Assembly: GCF_021378375.1 (NCBI RefSeq)
Contig: NZ_CP076228.1
Span: forward strand, 360,001 to 392,000
Reading direction: 5' to 3'
From: Wolbachia endosymbiont of Drosophila innubila
GTDB lineage: Bacteria; Pseudomonadota; Alphaproteobacteria; Rickettsiales; Anaplasmataceae
DNA: 32,000 nt
In this document: piece by piece, positions 4,412 through 15,131 of the stretch
Position numbering within the stretch: the first letter of the stretch is position 1
Layout: each line of letters starts with the position of its first letter
The notes under the pieces: model-generated
The model's database searches: none
The model's input: only the letters and a program-made list of their open reading frames with translations
Told to the model about the DNA's origin: nothing
Position numbers and translations under genes: made by a program

Positions 4412-6484
4412 ATGAATCATTCACATTTAAAATCTATGGCAAACGCCATCCGTTTTTTATCAATTGATGCAGTACAAAAAGCAAACTCTGGACACCCAGG
4501 TATGCCACTTGGCATGGCAGATGTTGCAACTGTTTTGTTTGCTAAATATCTGAATCATAATCCTGATGATTCTAAATGGTTCAATAGAGATCGCTTTGTT
4601 TTATCAAACGGTCATGGGTCAATGTTACTATACTCAATATTATATTTGACAGGTTATATTAGCGTAGATGAGCTAAAAAACTTCAGACAAATGGGATCCA
4701 AGACCCCAGGTCATCCAGAGTTCGGCTTGACTTCCGGGGTAGAGGCAACAACAGGCCCGCTCGGTCAGGGGTTTGCCGCTGCTGTTGGCATGGCACTTGC
4801 TGAATCGATACTTGAAAAGCAGTTTAGAATCAATCACTACACTTATGTGATGCTAGGGGATGGCTGTCTTATGGAAGGAATAAGCCATGAAGCAGCATCA
4901 CTTGCTGGGCATCTTAAATTGAATAAGCTTATAGCTCTTTTTGATGATAATGATATTTCTATAGATGGCGCTACTTGCCTTTCCTGTTCTGACGATGTAG
5001 AGAAACGCTTCTTAGCGTATGGATGGAATGTTGACAAAATTGATGGCCATGATTTTGATGCCATATCCCTTGCAATAGAGCAAGCAAAAAAGTCTGATAA
5101 ACCTACAATGATCTGCTGCAAAACTATTATCGGAAAATTTTCAAGCCGTGCTGGCACATCCTCTGCTCACAGTGGTGCTTTTTCGGAGGAAGACATAAAA
5201 CAGATGAGAGAGAAATTAAACTGGAATTATGAACCATTCCATGTACCAGAAGATGTGAAAAATGCCTGGAAGAAAACTGTTGAGAGAGCAAAACAAAACT
5301 ACACGATGTCATTCCAGCGCATGACGCTGGAATCCAGGAAAGAAGAAAAAGAATGGATCCCAGTGTCAAGCACTGGGATGACAAGAGAGAGTACTGGGAT
5401 GACAGAAGAGAATGCTGGGATGACAGGGTATCATGCAGAACTTCAAAGACGGTTAGATAAACATCTACCAGAGAATATCGCTGGTGTTTTAGCTGACCTG
5501 AAGAAACAAATATGTGAGCTAATGCCAAACGAAGCTACTCGATCTTCTTTCGGCAGAGTAATGGAACTTTTAACTGAGTCTATGCCGGAATTAATCGGCG
5601 GTTCTGCTGATCTTACCGGGTCAAATTGCACTAAATATGAGCACATGCAGGTAATAAATAGCAATAATTATAGTGGCTCTTATGTCCACTATGGAGTGAG
5701 AGAGCACGCTATGGCAGCATGTATGAATGGTATGGCACTTCACGGCGCGATTCTTCCTTATGGCGGCACTTTTTTGGTATTTTCCGACTATTGTCGTCCT
5801 GCTATACGTCTTTCAGCTCTGATGAAGCAGCAGGTTATATATGTCATGACTCACGACTCAATTGGAGTGGGAGAAGATGGCCCGACTCATCAGCCAATAG
5901 AGCATTTAGCCTCTTTGCGTGCTATACCAAATCTATATGTTTTTAGTCCAGCCGATGCAGTTGAAACTCTGGAGTGTGTTAGCATTGCACTCGAAAAGAA
6001 AGAATCTCCAGCACTGTTTGCGCTCTCAAGGCAAAACGTAAGTTACATGCGCAAGTTCTACTCTGATATCGATCAATCTGCTAATTTATCGAAGTTTGGT
6101 GCATATATTTTGTGTGAATGTTCAAAAGAATTAAAAGTGACGATATTTGCTACGGGGTCCGAGGTTGAAATTGCAGTTGAAGCAAGGGAGAAATTGCAGG
6201 AAAAGGGTATAGGTACAAGGATTGTTTCTATGCCATGCTGGAGGCTTTTTGACGAGCAAAGCGATGAATATAAAGCGGCAATATTAAATAATGACAGCAT
6301 TAAAGTTGCAATTGAAGCCGGAAGTGAAATGGGTTGGCATAAATATATAGGTTCAAACGGTATATTTATTGGCATGAAAAGCTTCGGAGAATCAGCACCT
6401 TATAAAACACTCTATGAGCATTTTAATATCAGCGCAGATCATGTGGTAAAATGTGTGTGTGAGAAACTGGTTTACATTCAGTAG
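4412..6484 (+). CDS. tkt: Transketolase (carries a roughly 40-aa repeat-derived insertion)
   Basis: 690 aa with hallmark motifs [33 protein letters not shown] and [15 protein letters not shown]. It ends with TAG. Confidence 0.95.
5308..5425. repeat. Palindromic repeat element embedded in-frame in tkt
   Basis: Hairpin attccagcg-catga-cgctggaat lies at 5311-5333 and hairpin atcccagtg-tcaag-cactgggat at 5357-5379. ctgggatgaca occurs three times at 21-nt period (5373, 5394, 5415). Positions 5354-5383 are identical to intergenic 6681-6710. Confidence 0.85.
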
Positions 6485-6519
6485 ACTTCTTGCATAACCA
6501 TATGAAAGCCCACTCTTCT

Positions 6520-6710
6520 TTGTCATCCCAGTACGTGACGTTATTTCCATCCAAGATGATGTCATTCCAGCACTTGACACTGGCATCTAGTTTTCTTTAC
6601 AAATTCACCAAAAGTGCTTCATTCTATAACGCAAAACCCATACTCACCAAACCCAATGCATTACTTGCAATTAAGTTTCCTGGATCCCAGTGTCAAGCAC
6701 TGGGATGACA
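6520..6710. repeat. Intergenic cluster of the same hairpin repeat family
   Basis: Contains tgtcatcccagtacgtgacg, gtcattccagcacttgacactggcatctag and ttacttgcaattaagtttcctggatcccagtgtcaagcactgggatgaca. The last of these is shared with 9741-9790. Confidence 0.8.
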
Positions 6711-6733
6711 CCTTTTCCGGTAGAAGATCACTA

Positions 6734-8220
6734 TCAAATCACATTGCTCTGGTCATTATGATCACCATTATTTTGTTCAACTGATTGATCGACCCCAGGT
6801 GAAGAAGAATCATCATAAGGTTGTGTGTCAGACTTTTCTTCGTCAGACCCAAACAACCATGAAAAAAAACCACCAAAAAATGATGCAATTAATGAAAAAG
6901 GCTTCATAAGTATACTAAACAAACTACCAAAAAAAGAGCTCGGCTGTTCTTCTGTTTGTGCAGGTTCTGTGGAAGCAACAGGACCTACATCGTTGTCTTG
7001 TACATCAGTTCCTTGTTCTGCACTGGTGGTGCTGGTTTTTTCCCCTTCTTTGCTATTATCTGATTGTAGTTCAGTATCATCACCTACTCGTTTTTCTTCC
7101 TCTTGACCCCCTTCACTATCTGTCGATGATCCACCCGCTGAACCATCATCAGATTTTTCTGCGGGTTGCAATAGAGTTTTTATTCCTTCATCAGTGGCTA
7201 ATTTGAAAGGAGTGTTTCCATGTTTATCTTCTATATTAACATCGATTCCATCTTTTCCCAATAGGGCTTCTACTGCCTCTTTATGGCCCTTTACAACGGC
7301 CCAATGTAAAGGAGTCTGTTCTGCAAGTTTATCTTTTATATTAACATCGATTCCTTCTGCTCCCAGTAGAGCGTTCAATACATTTATATCTATGTTGTCC
7401 TTTTTAGCAGCCAAATGCAAAGGAGTCCTGTCATCTTTATCTTGTGCATTAACATTGATTTCTTTTGCTCCCAGTAGAGCGTTCAATACATTTATATCTA
7501 TATTGCCCTTTTTAAGGACCAAATGTAAAGGAGTTTCGCCATATTCATCTTGTGCATTAACGTTGATTCCTTCTGCTCCCAGTAGAGCGTTCAATACATT
7601 TATATCTATGTTGTCCTTTTTAAGAACAGAATGTAAAGGAGTATCTTTCTTGTTATTTGGTAAATTAACATTGATTCCATCTTTTCCCAATAGGGCTTCT
7701 ACTACCTCTTTATGGTTCTTTACAGCAGCTAAATGTAAAGGAGTTTCTTGCAACCAATCTGTTGCATTAACATTGATCCCATTTACTTTCAGTAGGGCTT
7801 CTACTACCTCTTTATGGCCCTTTTCAGCAGCCCAATGTAGAGGAGTCTTGTTATCTTGATCTTTTACATTAACCTTTGCTCCTTCACTTATTAGACTGTT
7901 TACTTCCTGAATATTACCGCTTTTAGCAACCTCAAGTAATTTAGCTGTGCTTTGTAATAGAGTTTTTATTTCTTCGTCAGTAGTTAAAACTAAGGGAGTG
8001 TTTCCCTCTTCATCTTCTGCATTAACATTTGCCCCTTTGTCCAATAGAGCTTCTACTACCTCTTTATGGCCCCATACAGCAGCAATATGTAAAGGAGTCT
8101 CTCCTCTTTATCATTTTCTACCTTAACATCTGCTCCTTCACTTATTAGACGGTTTACTGCATCAATATCACCTCTTTCAACAGCCTTAAAAAAATTATCT
8201 CTACTTTGTGAATTACTCAT
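6734..8220 (-). pseudogene. Ankyrin-repeat protein with C-terminal hydrophobic segment; reading frame broken by a 1-nt frameshift near 8102-8110
   Basis: The 436-aa ORF (6734..8044, TTG scored as M) has about 9 ANK units (TPLHWAAEKGHKEVVEALL etc.). Its frame stays open upstream to 8107 as RGETPLHIAAVWGHKEVVEALL. A separate 54-codon ORF starts at ATG 8220 with SD aagaggtg (MSNSQSRDNFFKAVERGDIDAVNRLISEGADVKVENDKE) and is the obvious N-terminus, one base out of frame. Confidence 0.8.
7345..7668. repeat. Three tandem 108-bp (36-aa) units inside the ankyrin gene
   Basis: The core tcccagtagagcgttcaatacatttatatcta recurs at 7361, 7469 and 7577, an exact 108-nt period. It encodes NIDINVLNALLGA(E/K)(G/E)I(N/D)VN. 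Confidence 0.75.
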
Positions 8221-9556: not shown

Positions 9557-9670
9557 TTAATGATTTACTGGATTAAATATACTTAATTATAATGTATTTT
9601 TTTCATTAGTATATTAAATTAACTACTGAAATTAAGAGTAGCTATTCAAGAAAAAGCCTGTGAAGGCTCT

Positions 9671-9851
9671 ATCCAGTAGGGCAGTGCCATGACTACTTGG
9701 ATCTAGTTTCCATTATACAATTTCATCAAAGCAGTTTACTTACTTGCAATTAAGTTTCTGGATCCAAGTAGTCATGGCACTGGGATGACAGGAGAAGGAG
9801 GCTACTTAGATGACACCCTCCTAGTGGATTCAAATCACAATGTTCGTACAG
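9671..9851. repeat. Repeat cluster with a perfect 20-bp inverted repeat and one solo terminal motif
   Basis: gtgccatgactacttggatc (9684-9703) and gatccaagtagtcatggcac (9761-9780) are exact reverse complements. They are followed by cactgggatgaca, ggctacttagatgaca and ctagtggattcaaatcacaatgttcgtacag. Confidence 0.8.
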
Positions 9852-9911: not shown

Positions 9912-10177
9912 TTACCTTTGATTATTCACTTTAAGCTTTAAGTCTTCAACAGAAGATGCATTTGCCTCACTTACTACCTTTAGTGGTTCACCAAGGCTAT
10001 GTTCCACTTTTGTCTCAAATTTAAAGCCCAATTTTTCGCAAAGCTTCTGAAAATATTCAACAATAACATCAAACAAATTCTTACCACTTACTTTGTAGTT
10101 TTTTAGCTCTTTAGGAATGGTAAGAAGTACTTTACCATCTTCATATGTTACATTTTTATCTTCACATTTCAGTTTTA
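9912..10177 (-). pseudogene. 3' part of hypothetical gene interrupted by the IS5-family element
   Basis: Own translation reads (K)LKCEDKNVTYEDGKVLLTIPKELKNYKVSGKNLFDVIVEYFQKLCEKLGFKFETKVEHSLGEPLKVVSEANASSVEDLKLKVNNQR*. This is in the same frame as 11091..11643 once the IS is removed. Confidence 0.6.
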
Positions 10178-10236
10178 GAGGTTGTCCGGAAACAAGTAAA
10201 AGGCTATAATATCTGAAATTTTAGTACGGGGTAAAG

Positions 10237-10599
10237 ATGAGAAAAAAGTATCCAACAGATCTAAGCGAAAGGGAATGGGCAAGAATAGAAAAACACTTCA
10301 GAGTATCATACAAGAAAGGAGGAAGGCTGCCAAAGTATAGCAAAAAAGAAATATTAGAAGCAATTTTCTATGTATTGCGTACAGGGTGTCAATGGCGGTA
10401 TTTACCAAATGATTTTCCGCTATGGAAGACTGTGTATGAGCAGTTCAGGCAATGGAAGAAGCAGGGAATTTTTGAGAAAATGAATTATGAAATTACAAAA
10501 TATAGTAGAAGAAAAATAGGAAAGAATGAGCAGCCGAGTGCCTGTATAGTAGATAGTCAATCTGTAAAGACTACAGAAAAGGGGGGATCAAAGCTATGA
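10237..10599 (+). CDS. IS5-family transposase, N-terminal segment
   Basis: 120 aa. YVLRTGCQWRYLP and IVDSQSVKTTEKGG (first catalytic D region) are typical of IS5/IS1031 transposases. It stops just after the G6 run at 10581-10586. Confidence 0.8.
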   Translation: MRKKYPTDLSEREWARIEKHFRVSYKKGGRLPKYSKKEILEAIFYVLRTGCQWRYLPNDFPLWKTVYEQFRQWKKQGIFEKMNYEITKYSRRKIGKNEQPSACIVDSQSVKTTEKGGSKL

Positions 10600-10754
10600 T
10601 GGAAGTAAAAAGTAAAGGGTAGAAAAAGGCATATAATTACAGACACTCAGGGTTTTATACTAGGTTGTTACGTAGGCGCTGCTAACGAAAATGATAGAGA
10701 TGGTATTAAAATAGCATTAAACAATATGAGAACAAAATATACTAAAGTTAAAAA

Positions 10755-11066
10755 ATGTGGGCTGACATGGGATACCAAGGAAGAAATTTAAAGAATCACA
10801 TAAAGGAAGAATATGACATAGATATTGAAATTGTTAAAAGGCCTCCATGTAGATTTTGGGTGCACAAAGATACGCCACCTGAGCTACTACCAACAAGAGA
10901 ACAAGGGTTTAAAGTACAGCCAAGAAGATGGGTTGTAGAAAGGACTTTTGCTTGGGTTAATAGGAATAGAAGGCTATCGAAGGAGTATGATTTACTCACA
11001 ACATCCACTGAGAATTTCATATACCTAGCTATGAGTAGGGTTATGTTAAAGAGGGAATATGCTTGA
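10755..11066 (+). CDS. IS5-family transposase, C-terminal DDE segment
   Basis: MWADMGYQG carries the second D and VVERTFAWVNRNRRLSKEYD carries the E. This segment is in a different frame from the N-terminal segment. A middle piece KVKGRKRHIITDTQGFILGCYVGAANENDRDG (10609-10754) lies in the N-terminal frame. Confidence 0.8.
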   Translation: MWADMGYQGRNLKNHIKEEYDIDIEIVKRPPCRFWVHKDTPPELLPTREQGFKVQPRRWVVERTFAWVNRNRRLSKEYDLLTTSTENFIYLAMSRVMLKREYA

Positions 11067-11090
11067 ATTTACTAGTTTCCGGACAACCTC

Positions 11091-11643
11091 TAAACTCCGC
11101 TGAACTGCAAAAACCTGGTGTTTCGATATATGTACAATCATCATAGTTAAGCATTTTTGTATATTTCATGCTAAAACTAAGCTTTATACAATTGGGTTCA
11201 CGACAATCCATAATATACTCTCTTGTCATACAGTTGCTTTGCGTTGACAAATGAAAAGATCCAAGAGCTTGACTCATATCATTAGGAAGAAAATGAGTAT
11301 ATCCGCCCTGATAATAGTTATTTATTAACTCCTCAATAACAGAGTTATTGGGAATTGTTGCACCAACGTGTTTAAACATTTCTGTAAAAATTTGTCTGAG
11401 AAATGGACGATAATTCCCTTTTCCGTTTTCATCCCGTAGAATTAGATTTTTATGTTTTGAATACAGATTGTTAATAAATTCGTTAGTTATTTTTTGTCCG
11501 TTAATAGCAAGGCCGTGTGTTCTATTAAGATCCTTATATGTTCCCTCACCAGAAATTACTTCGTCCCAAGTGTTAGCTTTGAAATCAGCATATTTGAGCT
11601 TCTTCACTTCAGCTTTCAACGCATTGACCATTTCCTTTGACAT
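11091..11643 (-). pseudogene. 5' part of hypothetical gene interrupted by the IS5-family element
   Basis: The ORF-track ORF 11041..11643 reads 184 host codons (MSKEMVNALKAEV...ETPGFCSSAEF). It then continues for 16 codons into the IS inverted repeat (RGCPETSKFKHIPSLT*). I recognise no family for it. Confidence 0.6.
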
Positions 11644-11700: not shown

Positions 11701-14700
11701 TCAATTACTAAATGAATTTATCACTTTCACTTCCGTATTTTCCAGCGAGTCACCGTAAGTCACTGCTTTTAGGTAAAACTTTTTTCCCCTTTGCACTTCG
11801 AAAGATATTACTGAATCATCAAGCAGAGTAAATTTTTCACCTGCGGTGTGCTGATACTCTTTGGTGCCCTCTTGCCCTCTAATTAGGTTGCTAAGCTTAT
11901 ATTTATTTTTATCTATAAGTTCGGCACTCTGAAATTTTACTATCTCTTTTCCAACCAGTGCTAAATTGCTTACATTTATAGTACTAACATTAGTGCTTGT
12001 AAAACCCTCTTCTGTCATCCCAGTGCCCAGACACTGGGATCCAGGAGAAATATGGTCAAGCGCTGGAATGACACCATCACTTAAATAATGGTTATATGAA
12101 GAACTCAATACACCAAAACGTAACACTACTATAAGCCCCTCGTCGGTAGATTCCATTACATATCCGTAAGTAGACTGCTTGTTTGTGTTTGCGATAGGCT
12201 TATAATCCTTATCGTTGTACGAAATAAAGAGTGTTGCTCCTTTCCAATTCTTTTCCTCACTAATTAAAGTAAAGCTTGCACTATTACCTTTAATATCCGG
12301 TAAATCTATCATTTCTACGATGGTTTTGCTGATATGAGAAGGAGGGTATTCCTTCAGCATAAGTGACCTTGTTGAAGGAAAAGAAAGCTTATATATAGAG
12401 TGATCATAACCAACGCCAATTACTTGAATGGACATGCTTTCAAATTTCGTTTTTATAATTCTCACCGTATGTTTTTTCTCACTGTCTAAAATCGTTATTA
12501 CATCACTTGGCACAAGCCACGCATATTTTATCGGTAGCTTGAAATTGTATATATTTCTCTCTTGCCACGAAGAATAAAGTAAAACCTCAGCGATATTTTG
12601 CGCCTCTCCCTCCTCCATAATGAGCGGTATTTCAACTGTTATAGCAGCGCCTTGCTTTGGCAACTCAGCATATTTAACATCAATTGGATAGCCAAAATTG
12701 CGATTAAAATAAACGACGTTAACTTTATTGTTTAAATCTAATTGACTGATATTAGCAAGTTTTGAATTGTTACTGAAAACCGTTTCACCAATTGGTATTT
12801 CAGTCGTAACTCCCCTGCCCTTTTGGACAAATTTCAGTTTAGAGTCCTGTTCAACCACATCAAAAAAATAGCAATTTTGCAGCATTTTAATAATTGAACG
12901 TACCGATTGCTGGTCATTTATTACATATCCAGACAATAATTCTTTAACATCACTCGTATCGAACTGATCGCTTTTTAAACCTGCTTTTTGTAATAGATCC
13001 GATAAAACATCGGAAATATTAAGCTGTGAAAGCTTTCCCTGAATCCAATGTCCTGTCTGCCAATTATGGCAGTCAGTCCACATATCACACAAATTGGGGA
13101 AATAAGGAAATGGCCTTGCATCCCATGCCCAGAGAAACATTTTTTCTACCATTTCCGAGCTTTGCCACTTCTTTAGCGTTCCTTCAATTGCAATTTTTTG
13201 CGAAAGAAAGCTCACCTCTCCGTTTGAATATCGTGGATATTTGCTCTCTATGCTGCCTTTATCAACAAACACATTTGGCTCATTAGTGCAGCCGTTCATA
13301 CTGGGAAATCCATACTCAGTAAACCATATTTTTTTCATTTTTGGTTGCCATTTCGTTTTACTACCACTGGGGTTTATGTGAGTTTCACTCCACCATTTCT
13401 CTATATTTTTCCACGCATACCTGCTGTCGTTATACTTTACTTTTTCAGGTTCACTCTTTGAGTAATCATAGAAATAATCATACCCCACTCCACTGCTCCA
13501 ACCACCCATTACATCTTCCGCGGAATAACCAAAAGGAGGCTCTGGACCATCAGTCAGTGGAAAATAAGCATCTATGCCAATAACGTCGATGTACTCTGAA
13601 GACCAAAGCTCATCCATATTATACCAACCATCATATGAATGGTATTCACTCCAATCAGCAGCGTAAGTTACCGTTACTTCTTTTCCAAGCTGAAGTTTTA
13701 TTCGCTTTGCAAGCTTAACTAGCTCTATAACGGCAGGGTAATTCCCTTGTTCATCCCTGATTTTGGTAAGTTGCGCAAATTCAGATCCGATGATAAACCC
13801 TTCCACTTTAGTTTGTTTGGCAATGCTTGCATAATGCTCTATAAATTTGTTATATTGATTCTCAAAAAAATCACTTATATCCCCAGGGGTCCCGCTCAAT
13901 TTTCCTCGCTACTCTTTGTTCTTTGTGTCAAGTAAGGGCATTGGATAGAGCATCACCTTGTAGCCTCTGCTGTGTAGCTCTTCTATATATCTTATCAACG
14001 CTGCATCACTAACTGTGCCACCATACCTTGGGTTTCCACTCGCATCTTTTGAAATTAGCTGAGCATTATCTCTGGTTACACCCCCTACTTGCCAATCATC
14101 AGGTAATATTGCGGAATCATCTTGAAATTCAACTGCAAGATATATTTTACAATCTTTAATGTTCAGATCATTCACAAACCAATTGACTACCACCGACACC
14201 AACTCAACATTTGGCAAATCTTCTTTTAATTGATCCAAAGAAAGCATTGCATCGCTCTTTTTAGTGTGGTTGTTGTGATTTACCCTTTGCGCCAGCCCAT
14301 ATGGGATATATTGGTTGCTGCTTATTTTCTCTTGCGCGATTTTCTTCTGTATTTTTGTATCATATACAAACTCACCTGAACCTGGTATGATATTGATATT
14401 CCGAATATTTTCCGCTATTGAAAACCCAACGGGCTTTAATGCAGTTCGCACTTCAAATGTAAATATCGGGACGCGATTGTTATAGTCTGCTAAAGGAAAA
14501 TTCTTGATGACTATGTAAGATATTTCCCTATAAGCCGGCACATTCCCCTCTCCTTCAATTGATGACATAAATGGATCAGGATTTTGGTCTTCTCTGCCGC
14601 TGTAAAAAGTATAATCTATTTCATCAAAGCTAAGTGATGTTGTATCTGCCCAGATTCTGTTTAATTTTTCTACTTTCCCCTTGCAGATCGCAATTGCAAG

Positions 14701-15036: not shown

Positions 15037-15080
15037 GGTAATCCTCCTTTTGATAGATTTTTTTGAAATTGTTGAGAGAA

Positions 15081-15131
15081 GATCCAAGTATCACGCTACT
15101 TGGATGACAAGAAAGTGGTACTGGGATGACA
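15081..15131. repeat. Hairpin repeat units upstream of the tail-protein gene
   Basis: atccaagta-tcacgc-tacttggat hairpin followed by gatgaca and tactgggatgaca. Confidence 0.75.

Follow-up and report, generated by a model that had tools for sequence, protein, structure and literature searches.

How does the gene of a core metabolic enzyme come to carry, within its reading frame, palindromic repeats of the kind that fill the DNA between genes? The question is raised by tkt, the transketolase gene of the Wolbachia endosymbiont of Drosophila innubila, in a 32,000-nt stretch of contig NZ_CP076228.1 (assembly GCF_021378375.1, positions 360,001 to 392,000 of the forward strand), the whole of which is referred to here as the window and provides the coordinates used below. 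The tkt open reading frame (ORF) runs uninterrupted for 690 codons on the plus strand (4412..6484), as a preliminary description of this DNA had noted. Its 690-aa product matches WP_190321202.1 from Wolbachia of D. innubila exactly, has three transketolase domains (Transketolase_N, Transket_pyr and the C-terminal Pfam domain) and aligns to solved transketolases with E ~1e-206. Within this protein lies a segment assembled from short units resembling repetitive extragenic palindromes (REPs), and our data argue strongly for a tolerated selfish REP insertion that is very probably kept in frame through purifying selection and hypervariable through hairpin-driven slippage. The host allele is unexceptional: it is the standard wMel protein, present on 215 contigs, and being ordinary in wMel its sequence has long been public. 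Our literature search, whose scope did not extend to Ogata et al. 2005, found no description of an insert at the tkt locus. The kind of phenomenon has already been described in Rickettsia and Wolbachia, and the tkt insert is one more example; the present analysis adds an allele series of great variability, the finding that host codons are duplicated, and the recognition that the repeat is identical with the Rfam WsnRNA46 family. A core metabolic enzyme that has absorbed a selfish palindromic repeat nevertheless makes a clear and well-bounded case.

The variable segment comprises codons 298-342 (45 residues; 5303..5437, plus strand) and stands in place of the 6 codons of insert-free alleles, which makes the gene 117 nt and its product 39 aa longer. 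These bounds correct those first proposed for what had rightly been seen as an in-frame repeat segment. In an alignment of 46 sequences there is not one invariant column from N296 to E343, and invariant residues are dense on either flank. The segment contains two perfect hairpins, exactly where they were originally placed, each of 23 bp with a 9-bp stem and a 5-nt loop: ATTCCAGCG-CATGA-CGCTGGAAT at 5311-5333 and ATCCCAGTG-TCAAG-CACTGGGAT at 5357-5379. The first is the centre of a REP unit lying tag first (5307..5337, plus strand; TGTCAT-TCCAGCG-CATGA-CGCTGGA-ATCCAG), which encodes SFQRMTLES, and the second of a unit in inverse orientation (5354..5383, minus strand; TGGATCCCAGTG-TCAAG-CACTGGGATGACA). 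The units thus point towards each other, tags on the outside (TGTCAT...CCAG / 16-nt spacer / TGGATC...ATGACA) across an A-rich spacer of 16 nt (5338..5353, plus strand) that encodes KEEKE, a position occupied by 29-89 nt in intergenic copies. Together they form a complete inverted dimer (5307..5383, plus strand) predicted to fold as one long hairpin of ~30 bp with the spacer as its loop; the RNA fold gives -52 kcal/mol (z -7.2) and the DNA fold a z of -4.3. The right arm and tag of the second unit (ACTGGGATGACA plus 9 nt) then recur as a 21-nt tandem repeat of 2.6 copies (5372..5426, plus strand; Tandem Repeats Finder (TRF), 88% matches), in which CTGGGATGACA is found exactly at 5373, 5394 and 5415, the 21-nt-period triplication noticed at the outset. 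An antisense ORF across the region (5127..5528) was taken to be a by-product of the open tkt frame, and the hairpins were rejected as intrinsic terminators for tkt because neither is followed by a T-run on the sense strand. Read on the minus strand (5379-5357), hairpin 2 has CCATTCTTTTTCTTCTTT after it and is scored as intrinsic-terminator-like.

The same units are dispersed through the window. Direct reading of the sequence confirmed that 5354-5383 is identical to intergenic 6681-6710 at 30/30 positions, and hairpin 2 occurs again exactly at 6684-6706 and with one mismatch at 26866-26888, where shuffled sequence is expected to contain none. Allowing at most one mismatch, the window contains CTGGGATGACA 19 times, where 0.30 occurrences would be expected. 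Intact hairpins of the family number 14, most of them (11) intergenic or at gene edges, with two in tkt and one in another ORF. When 15 window units were aligned in one orientation the consensus was TGTCATCCCAGTGCnTGACACTGGGATCTA, with GTCAT invariant at one end and preceded by C in 5 units and by T in 10; both tkt units read TGTC. The inner stems fall into subtypes (CCAGTG/CACTGG, CCGCTA/TAGCGG, CCGCG/CGCGG and CCAAGTA/TACTTGG), and compensatory changes affect 6/9 stem pairs, with a covariation score of 0.54 against 0.19 in shuffles; the proportion of paired bases, 96%, is high by construction because the units were selected as hairpins. Inverted dimers with longer spacers than that of tkt lie at 6560-6710, 9682-9782 and 26862-26952, the first within a full-length intergenic copy (6542..6730, minus strand) in the 250 bp separating tkt from the convergent ankyrin gene, and the second within a further intergenic copy (9664..9801, minus strand). 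A stutter of arm plus tag with a period of ~21-22 nt, like that in tkt, also occurs between genes at 15080-15131 and 26972-27020, the latter in an intergenic cluster of at least six units and three stem subtypes (26617..27025, also delimited as 26720-27025) whose arm stutter has a period of 22 nt. A second dimer is in frame within ORF 11701..13899 (dimer 12004..12078, minus strand), where it encodes GVIPALDHISPGSQCLGTGMTEEG. That ORF, also on the minus strand, specifies a 732-aa protein with GTA_TIM (TIM-barrel), Phage-tail_3 and Rcc01698_C domains, and the dimer is placed between the last two; the right arm is missing from its first unit, a state also seen in some tkt alleles.

That the segment was gained, rather than lost elsewhere, is indicated by relatives, for which we compared tkt from 80 genomes and 120 Wolbachia Tkt proteins. 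Insert-free Tkt has 6 residues (e.g. VSSTSK) between AKQNY and ELQRRL, against 45 here, so the clean gap of ~39-40 aa that had been predicted for relatives does exist. The 6-residue state is found in Mesenet, in an Anaplasmataceae metagenome-assembled genome, in Anaplasma and in early-branching Wolbachia (wPpe, wCori and others), and also in supergroup B strains (wStri, wCon) and several F-like strains. An insert-free Wolbachia Tkt (P0116) aligns to PDB 4xeu in one stretch; the alignment of the window Tkt to solved structures breaks at residues 291/341. We regard the segment as a derived insertion, as judged from sequence comparison, because it is missing from outgroups and early-branching Wolbachia and because P0116 runs unbroken along 4xeu. 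The preliminary description had treated a homologous segment in repeat-free relatives as a finding that would speak against an insertion, and the repeat-poor filarial Wolbachia do have a decayed homologue at the same tkt site, but these are old copies of the element and not ancestral Tkt sequence. It is scarcely credible, and already contradicted, that there was no insertion and that native Tkt sequence either resembles the repeats by chance or was the source of the intergenic copies. Such a view can draw on the 'empty' alleles of F type (L004, L009, L003), which already read GTGTC-CTCGA-CCAGTGAAGAG (GTGTC-CTCGA-CCAGTG) at the site and whose outer parts match the REP flanks of single-hairpin alleles (GTGTC-ATTCCAG...CTGGAAT-CCAGTGAA). 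It conflicts with the segment-free outgroups and early-branching Wolbachia, with a family whose intact copies number at least 14 and whose stem subtypes, at least three, have only the tag and hairpin shape in common, and with the presence of that family inside an unrelated ORF (11701..13899). Among the Wolbachia-type proteins, P0084, P0109 and P0110 are annotated as host sequences (Glossina morsitans, Vollenhovia emeryi, as 'transketolase-2, chloroplastic-like', and Trichonephila clavata) and are probably lateral transfers or contamination of host assemblies; P0015, labelled 'group B', has a supergroup A-type allele with 99% identity.

The position of the insert in the enzyme suggests why it could be accommodated. 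The linker that joins the PP domain to the Pyr domain is ~70 aa long and flexible in full-length enzymes (in E. coli TK it comprises helices alpha12 and alpha13); the active split transketolase of Carboxydothermus (ChTK), DXPS and PDH E1 all lack it (PMC7661550). Aligned to the window Tkt, the split Carboxydothermus chains cover only query residues 5-261 and 373-684, and this alignment together with the literature puts the insert (residues 298-342) in what would be the middle of the PP-Pyr linker (residues 262-372). The proposal that the insert be mapped onto transketolase structures thus gave a linker location by alignment to PDB entries; by the same alignments and the split-transketolase literature, the insert would form a surface-exposed loop. 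We propose that the insert, tolerated because length can change in this linker, is translated into a loop of low complexity. The enzyme itself is retained even in a Wolbachia genome of 0.55 Mb (L026).

The segment is also strikingly variable among Wolbachia, the 118 Tkt proteins compared showing 21 different lengths of the region, from 50 to 134 aa. The alleles include remnants (SSVSLTSENKE), a single hairpin (NSVSFQCLTLESS), the dimer alone, the dimer followed by 1, 2, 3 or 4 seven-residue units, and compound forms in which hairpins alternate with a duplicated tkt flank (ELQRRLDxRLPDN). In one compound allele (L081, 733 aa) a repeat search found a 47-nt tkt segment three times at 70-79% identity, and across alleles a larger period of ~90-150 nt that includes tkt codons is present in 1-3 copies. 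With copies only 70-79% alike, the flank duplications of L025 and L002 escaped TRF. The duplicated flank was considered as part of the mobile element and ruled out, as it occurs once in the window. Among pairs of proteins with 0-3 backbone differences the insert length differs in 50/366, and in one such pair the backbones are identical and the regions are 89 and 82 aa long (P0004 and P0043); insert length changes fast relative to substitutions. All of this variation leaves the frame intact: a complete tkt at 27 genomic loci of the Wolbachia clade is open in every case except L036, a read-archive assembly with an A7-to-A6 homopolymer frameshift. At a further locus, L025 (NZ_OU909470.1, chromosome of 'Wolbachia of Psylliodes chrysocephala', 4648-7458), tkt ends at residue 462, immediately next to an ORF of 936 aa in which Pao retrotransposon peptidase and integrase zinc-finger domains are recognised; since it adjoins a Pao-type retrotransposon, this locus is probably Wolbachia DNA inserted in the host genome, or a chimeric assembly.

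The palindromes also differ in their state of preservation, pairing at 9/9 positions in supergroup A and being unrecognisable in wDimm and the J strains. In supergroup D (L007, L010) the single hairpin keeps a 9/9 stem through a double change from ATTCCAG/CTGGAAT to ATTTCAG/CTGAAAT, which may reflect constraint, gene conversion or the separate insertion of a variant unit. Arranged from empty through single-unit, dimeric, expanded and flank-duplicated to decayed, the alleles trace what can be regarded as the life cycle of such inserts, and they show where a protein can accommodate them. The tkt linker also provides a length-polymorphic coding marker that separates near-identical supergroup A strains.

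Could the peptide instead have been co-opted at the protein level, for example to serve as a docking loop or a regulated linker, and be retained because selection acts on that function? In supergroups A, C, D and J and in part of F the segment does remain in frame, and in C and J the coding sequence persists after the palindrome has decayed. We nonetheless consider co-option quite improbable, as length is free over 50-134 aa, sequence is free with zero invariant residues, composition is low-complexity, healthy lineages including supergroups B and F have insert-free alleles, and a natural transketolase dispenses with the entire linker. Guanylate kinase of Rickettsia conorii has reportedly been found to be equal with and without its Rickettsia palindromic element (RPE). 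The selfish insertion that we favour would be neutral for the protein.

Membership of a wider family is supported by Rfam. The family WsnRNA46 (RF02625), which stands for Wolbachia small non-coding RNA 46 and is attributed to Mayoral et al. 2014, has as its consensus the same inverted dimer (guGuCauccgaGug...CuGGgauCca / ugGauuCCaGuG...ggauGaCac). The tkt copy (5291-5404, covering the dimer) matches the full model, positions 1-151, at 49.6 bits on the minus strand and 46.9 bits on the plus strand, with E 8e-8 for the whole window. It falls short of the gathering threshold of 65.3 bits on account of a shorter loop, 17 nt against ~54 nt, the central 54 nt of the model being replaced by 17 nt. 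The threshold is passed by 6542-6730 (88.1 bits, the best match) and 9664-9801 (74.6 bits), and two further sub-threshold matches lie in the intergenic cluster (26617-26769 and 26848-26967), giving five matches in 32 kb, one in tkt and four intergenic. The resemblance of the tkt insert to the intergenic copies, first noted by eye, is thus formal, resting on an exact 30-mer and on a common covariance-model match. The tkt copy shares with WsnRNA46 the inverted dimer matched from end to end, and differs in lying within coding sequence, in its shorter loop and in its sub-threshold score. As far as these matches indicate, the 'sRNA' (small RNA) family WsnRNA46 corresponds to a dispersed REP-dimer repeat with at least one copy in a coding sequence. 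WsnRNA46 is among the most frequently annotated sRNAs (PMC9029176). With five matches in 32 kb the Rfam hits and small-RNA reads of the family are multi-copy, and in Wolbachia they should be read with its dispersed-repeat nature in mind.

This match brings forward a further explanation, that the insert has a role as RNA, the ~30-bp duplex in the tkt mRNA being a processing site (e.g. for RNase III). The outcome would be either WsnRNA46-like small RNAs or tuned stability or translation of the tkt mRNA at the PP/Pyr domain boundary, and either would be compatible with a selfish origin. The full-length match to the WsnRNA46 model, the very stable predicted RNA hairpin and the preservation of the stem by compensatory change in supergroup D alleles are all consistent with such a role, and WsnRNA-46 is reported, in a statement quoted in PMC12796755, to be expressed and to act on murD and host dynein. 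We consider it unlikely all the same: the tkt copy scores under the threshold with its central region replaced, many strains have hairpin-free, one-armed or decayed alleles and yet keep tkt, and the compensatory pattern could also arise by gene conversion or by separate insertions of variant units. The narrower proposal, that cleavage or processing of a WsnRNA46-type duplex couples transketolase expression to the small-RNA pathway or makes the tkt mRNA a source of small RNA, seems to us slightly more doubtful still; if it were true, strain-to-strain variation of the repeats would tune the link to that pathway.

The evidence of family membership, polarity, in-frame hypervariability and linker site favours, as was first suggested, a selfish element tolerated in tkt. 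Under this explanation an inverted dimer of short, GTCAT-tagged, non-autonomous REP-like repeats would have entered the tkt gene of a Wolbachia ancestor, from the dispersed family, equivalent to Rfam WsnRNA46, that fills the local intergenic DNA. Purifying selection on tkt would then allow only stop-free variants that are multiples of three in length to persist. The hairpins would promote replication slippage and unequal recombination, and as a proposed consequence the segment would grow and shrink, be duplicated along with adjoining tkt codons and in the end decay. Several observations weigh against this account or limit it. No mobilising enzyme came to light, no transposase of IS200/RAYT type being found among the 25 window ORFs scanned, and the related CGTC REPs have likewise been described as lacking a dedicated transposase (Di Nocera et al. 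2013, PMC3733652). A target-site duplication cannot be defined at the tkt insert, and since the F-type empty site resembles REP flanks, some 'empty' alleles may be excision remnants; that site may be a preferred target or an excision footprint. The double change in supergroup D hints at constraint at the level of the nucleic acid, or at gene conversion, rather than at pure neutrality. Finally, an AlphaFold2 model was discarded (predicted local distance difference test (pLDDT) 36, predicted TM-score (pTM) 0.30), its 46-sequence, Wolbachia-only alignment being too shallow, and because this structure model failed, exposure of the loop is argued from alignment and literature.

How does the tkt insert compare with known repeat systems? 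The closest described family is that of the CGTC-4 REPs (Di Nocera et al. 2013, PMC3733652), which are equivalent to RPE-4 of R. conorii and have been reported from wMel and wRi as well. As in the CGTC REPs, which are imperfect palindromes of 20-40 bp that form a stem-loop, the units in the window are short hairpins with a conserved tag at one end and compensatory stem changes, and are dispersed as head-to-head dimers and clusters that are mainly intergenic and occasionally in frame within genes. The peptides encoded by intragenic CGTC-4 copies, WIPWSNHGMT in R. conorii RC0283 and VIPVLDTGI in ComEC of wRi (WRi_011360), are nearly those of tkt in the same frames. In contrast to CGTC-4, the tkt units begin with TGTC, only GTCAT being invariant in the window; tkt is not among the listed REP-bearing ORFs, the wRi list holding ComEC only (PMC3733652); and the published account mentions no 21-nt arm repeat and no duplication of flanks. 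The preliminary description had likened the insert to Rickettsia palindromic elements, which holds for the kind of element, but GTCAT/CGTC-tagged REP dimers fit better than classical RPE-1, which is 100-150 bp long and unrelated in sequence to the tkt units. Like the RPEs, the Wolbachia palindromic elements (WPEs) and the WPE-like in-frame palindromes that Badawi et al. 2014 (PMC4224334) describe in addA, addB and priA of Wolbachia, the insert is an in-frame palindromic repeat in a housekeeping gene; it lies in a conserved ORF that has no stop or frameshift, opposite a gap in outgroup and supergroup B orthologues. The ATGAC motif common to RPE-4, -6 and -7 and the WPEs (PMC3767692) is present in the insert as GGGATGACA and GTCAT, although, despite this link, Di Nocera et al. 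2013 (PMC3733652) describe the CGTC-4 units of wMel and wRi as unrelated to the wBm WPEs. For the instability of the segment the nearest parallel is provided by the Wolbachia variable-number tandem repeats VNTR-105 and VNTR-141, which include 23-bp hairpins with 9-bp stems within their periods and whose copy number differs among close supergroup A strains, a difference attributed to hairpin-induced slippage (Riegler et al. 2012, PMC3287509). The tkt array has the same hairpin dimensions, a hairpin or arm within tandem periods, and copy-number polymorphism, but it is coding with a period of 21 nt and 1-4 copies, whereas the VNTRs lie between genes and have periods of 105 and 141 bp.

Other features of the window were observed in passing. 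The cation transporter gene trkH is split into two ORFs on the plus strand (19315-19782 and 19840-20775, profile positions 4-117 and 316-486) and is probably a pseudogene or a frameshifted gene. An element of the IS4/IS5 family (10174-11094) has 27-nt inverted repeats at its ends that are 96% complementary; its only intact ORF encodes a 120-aa DUF4096 protein (10237-10599), and its transposase looks split or degraded. At 23753-24944, 55-nt inverted repeats that are 80% complementary enclose 1082 nt in which there is no ORF of at least 110 aa, and may mark a decayed insertion sequence or another non-autonomous element. The ankyrin-repeat gene downstream of tkt (6734-8044, minus strand) contains tandem repeats of 102-108 nt in 3.4 and 1.9 copies with ~81% matches, and the C-terminal half of its product is acidic and of low complexity.

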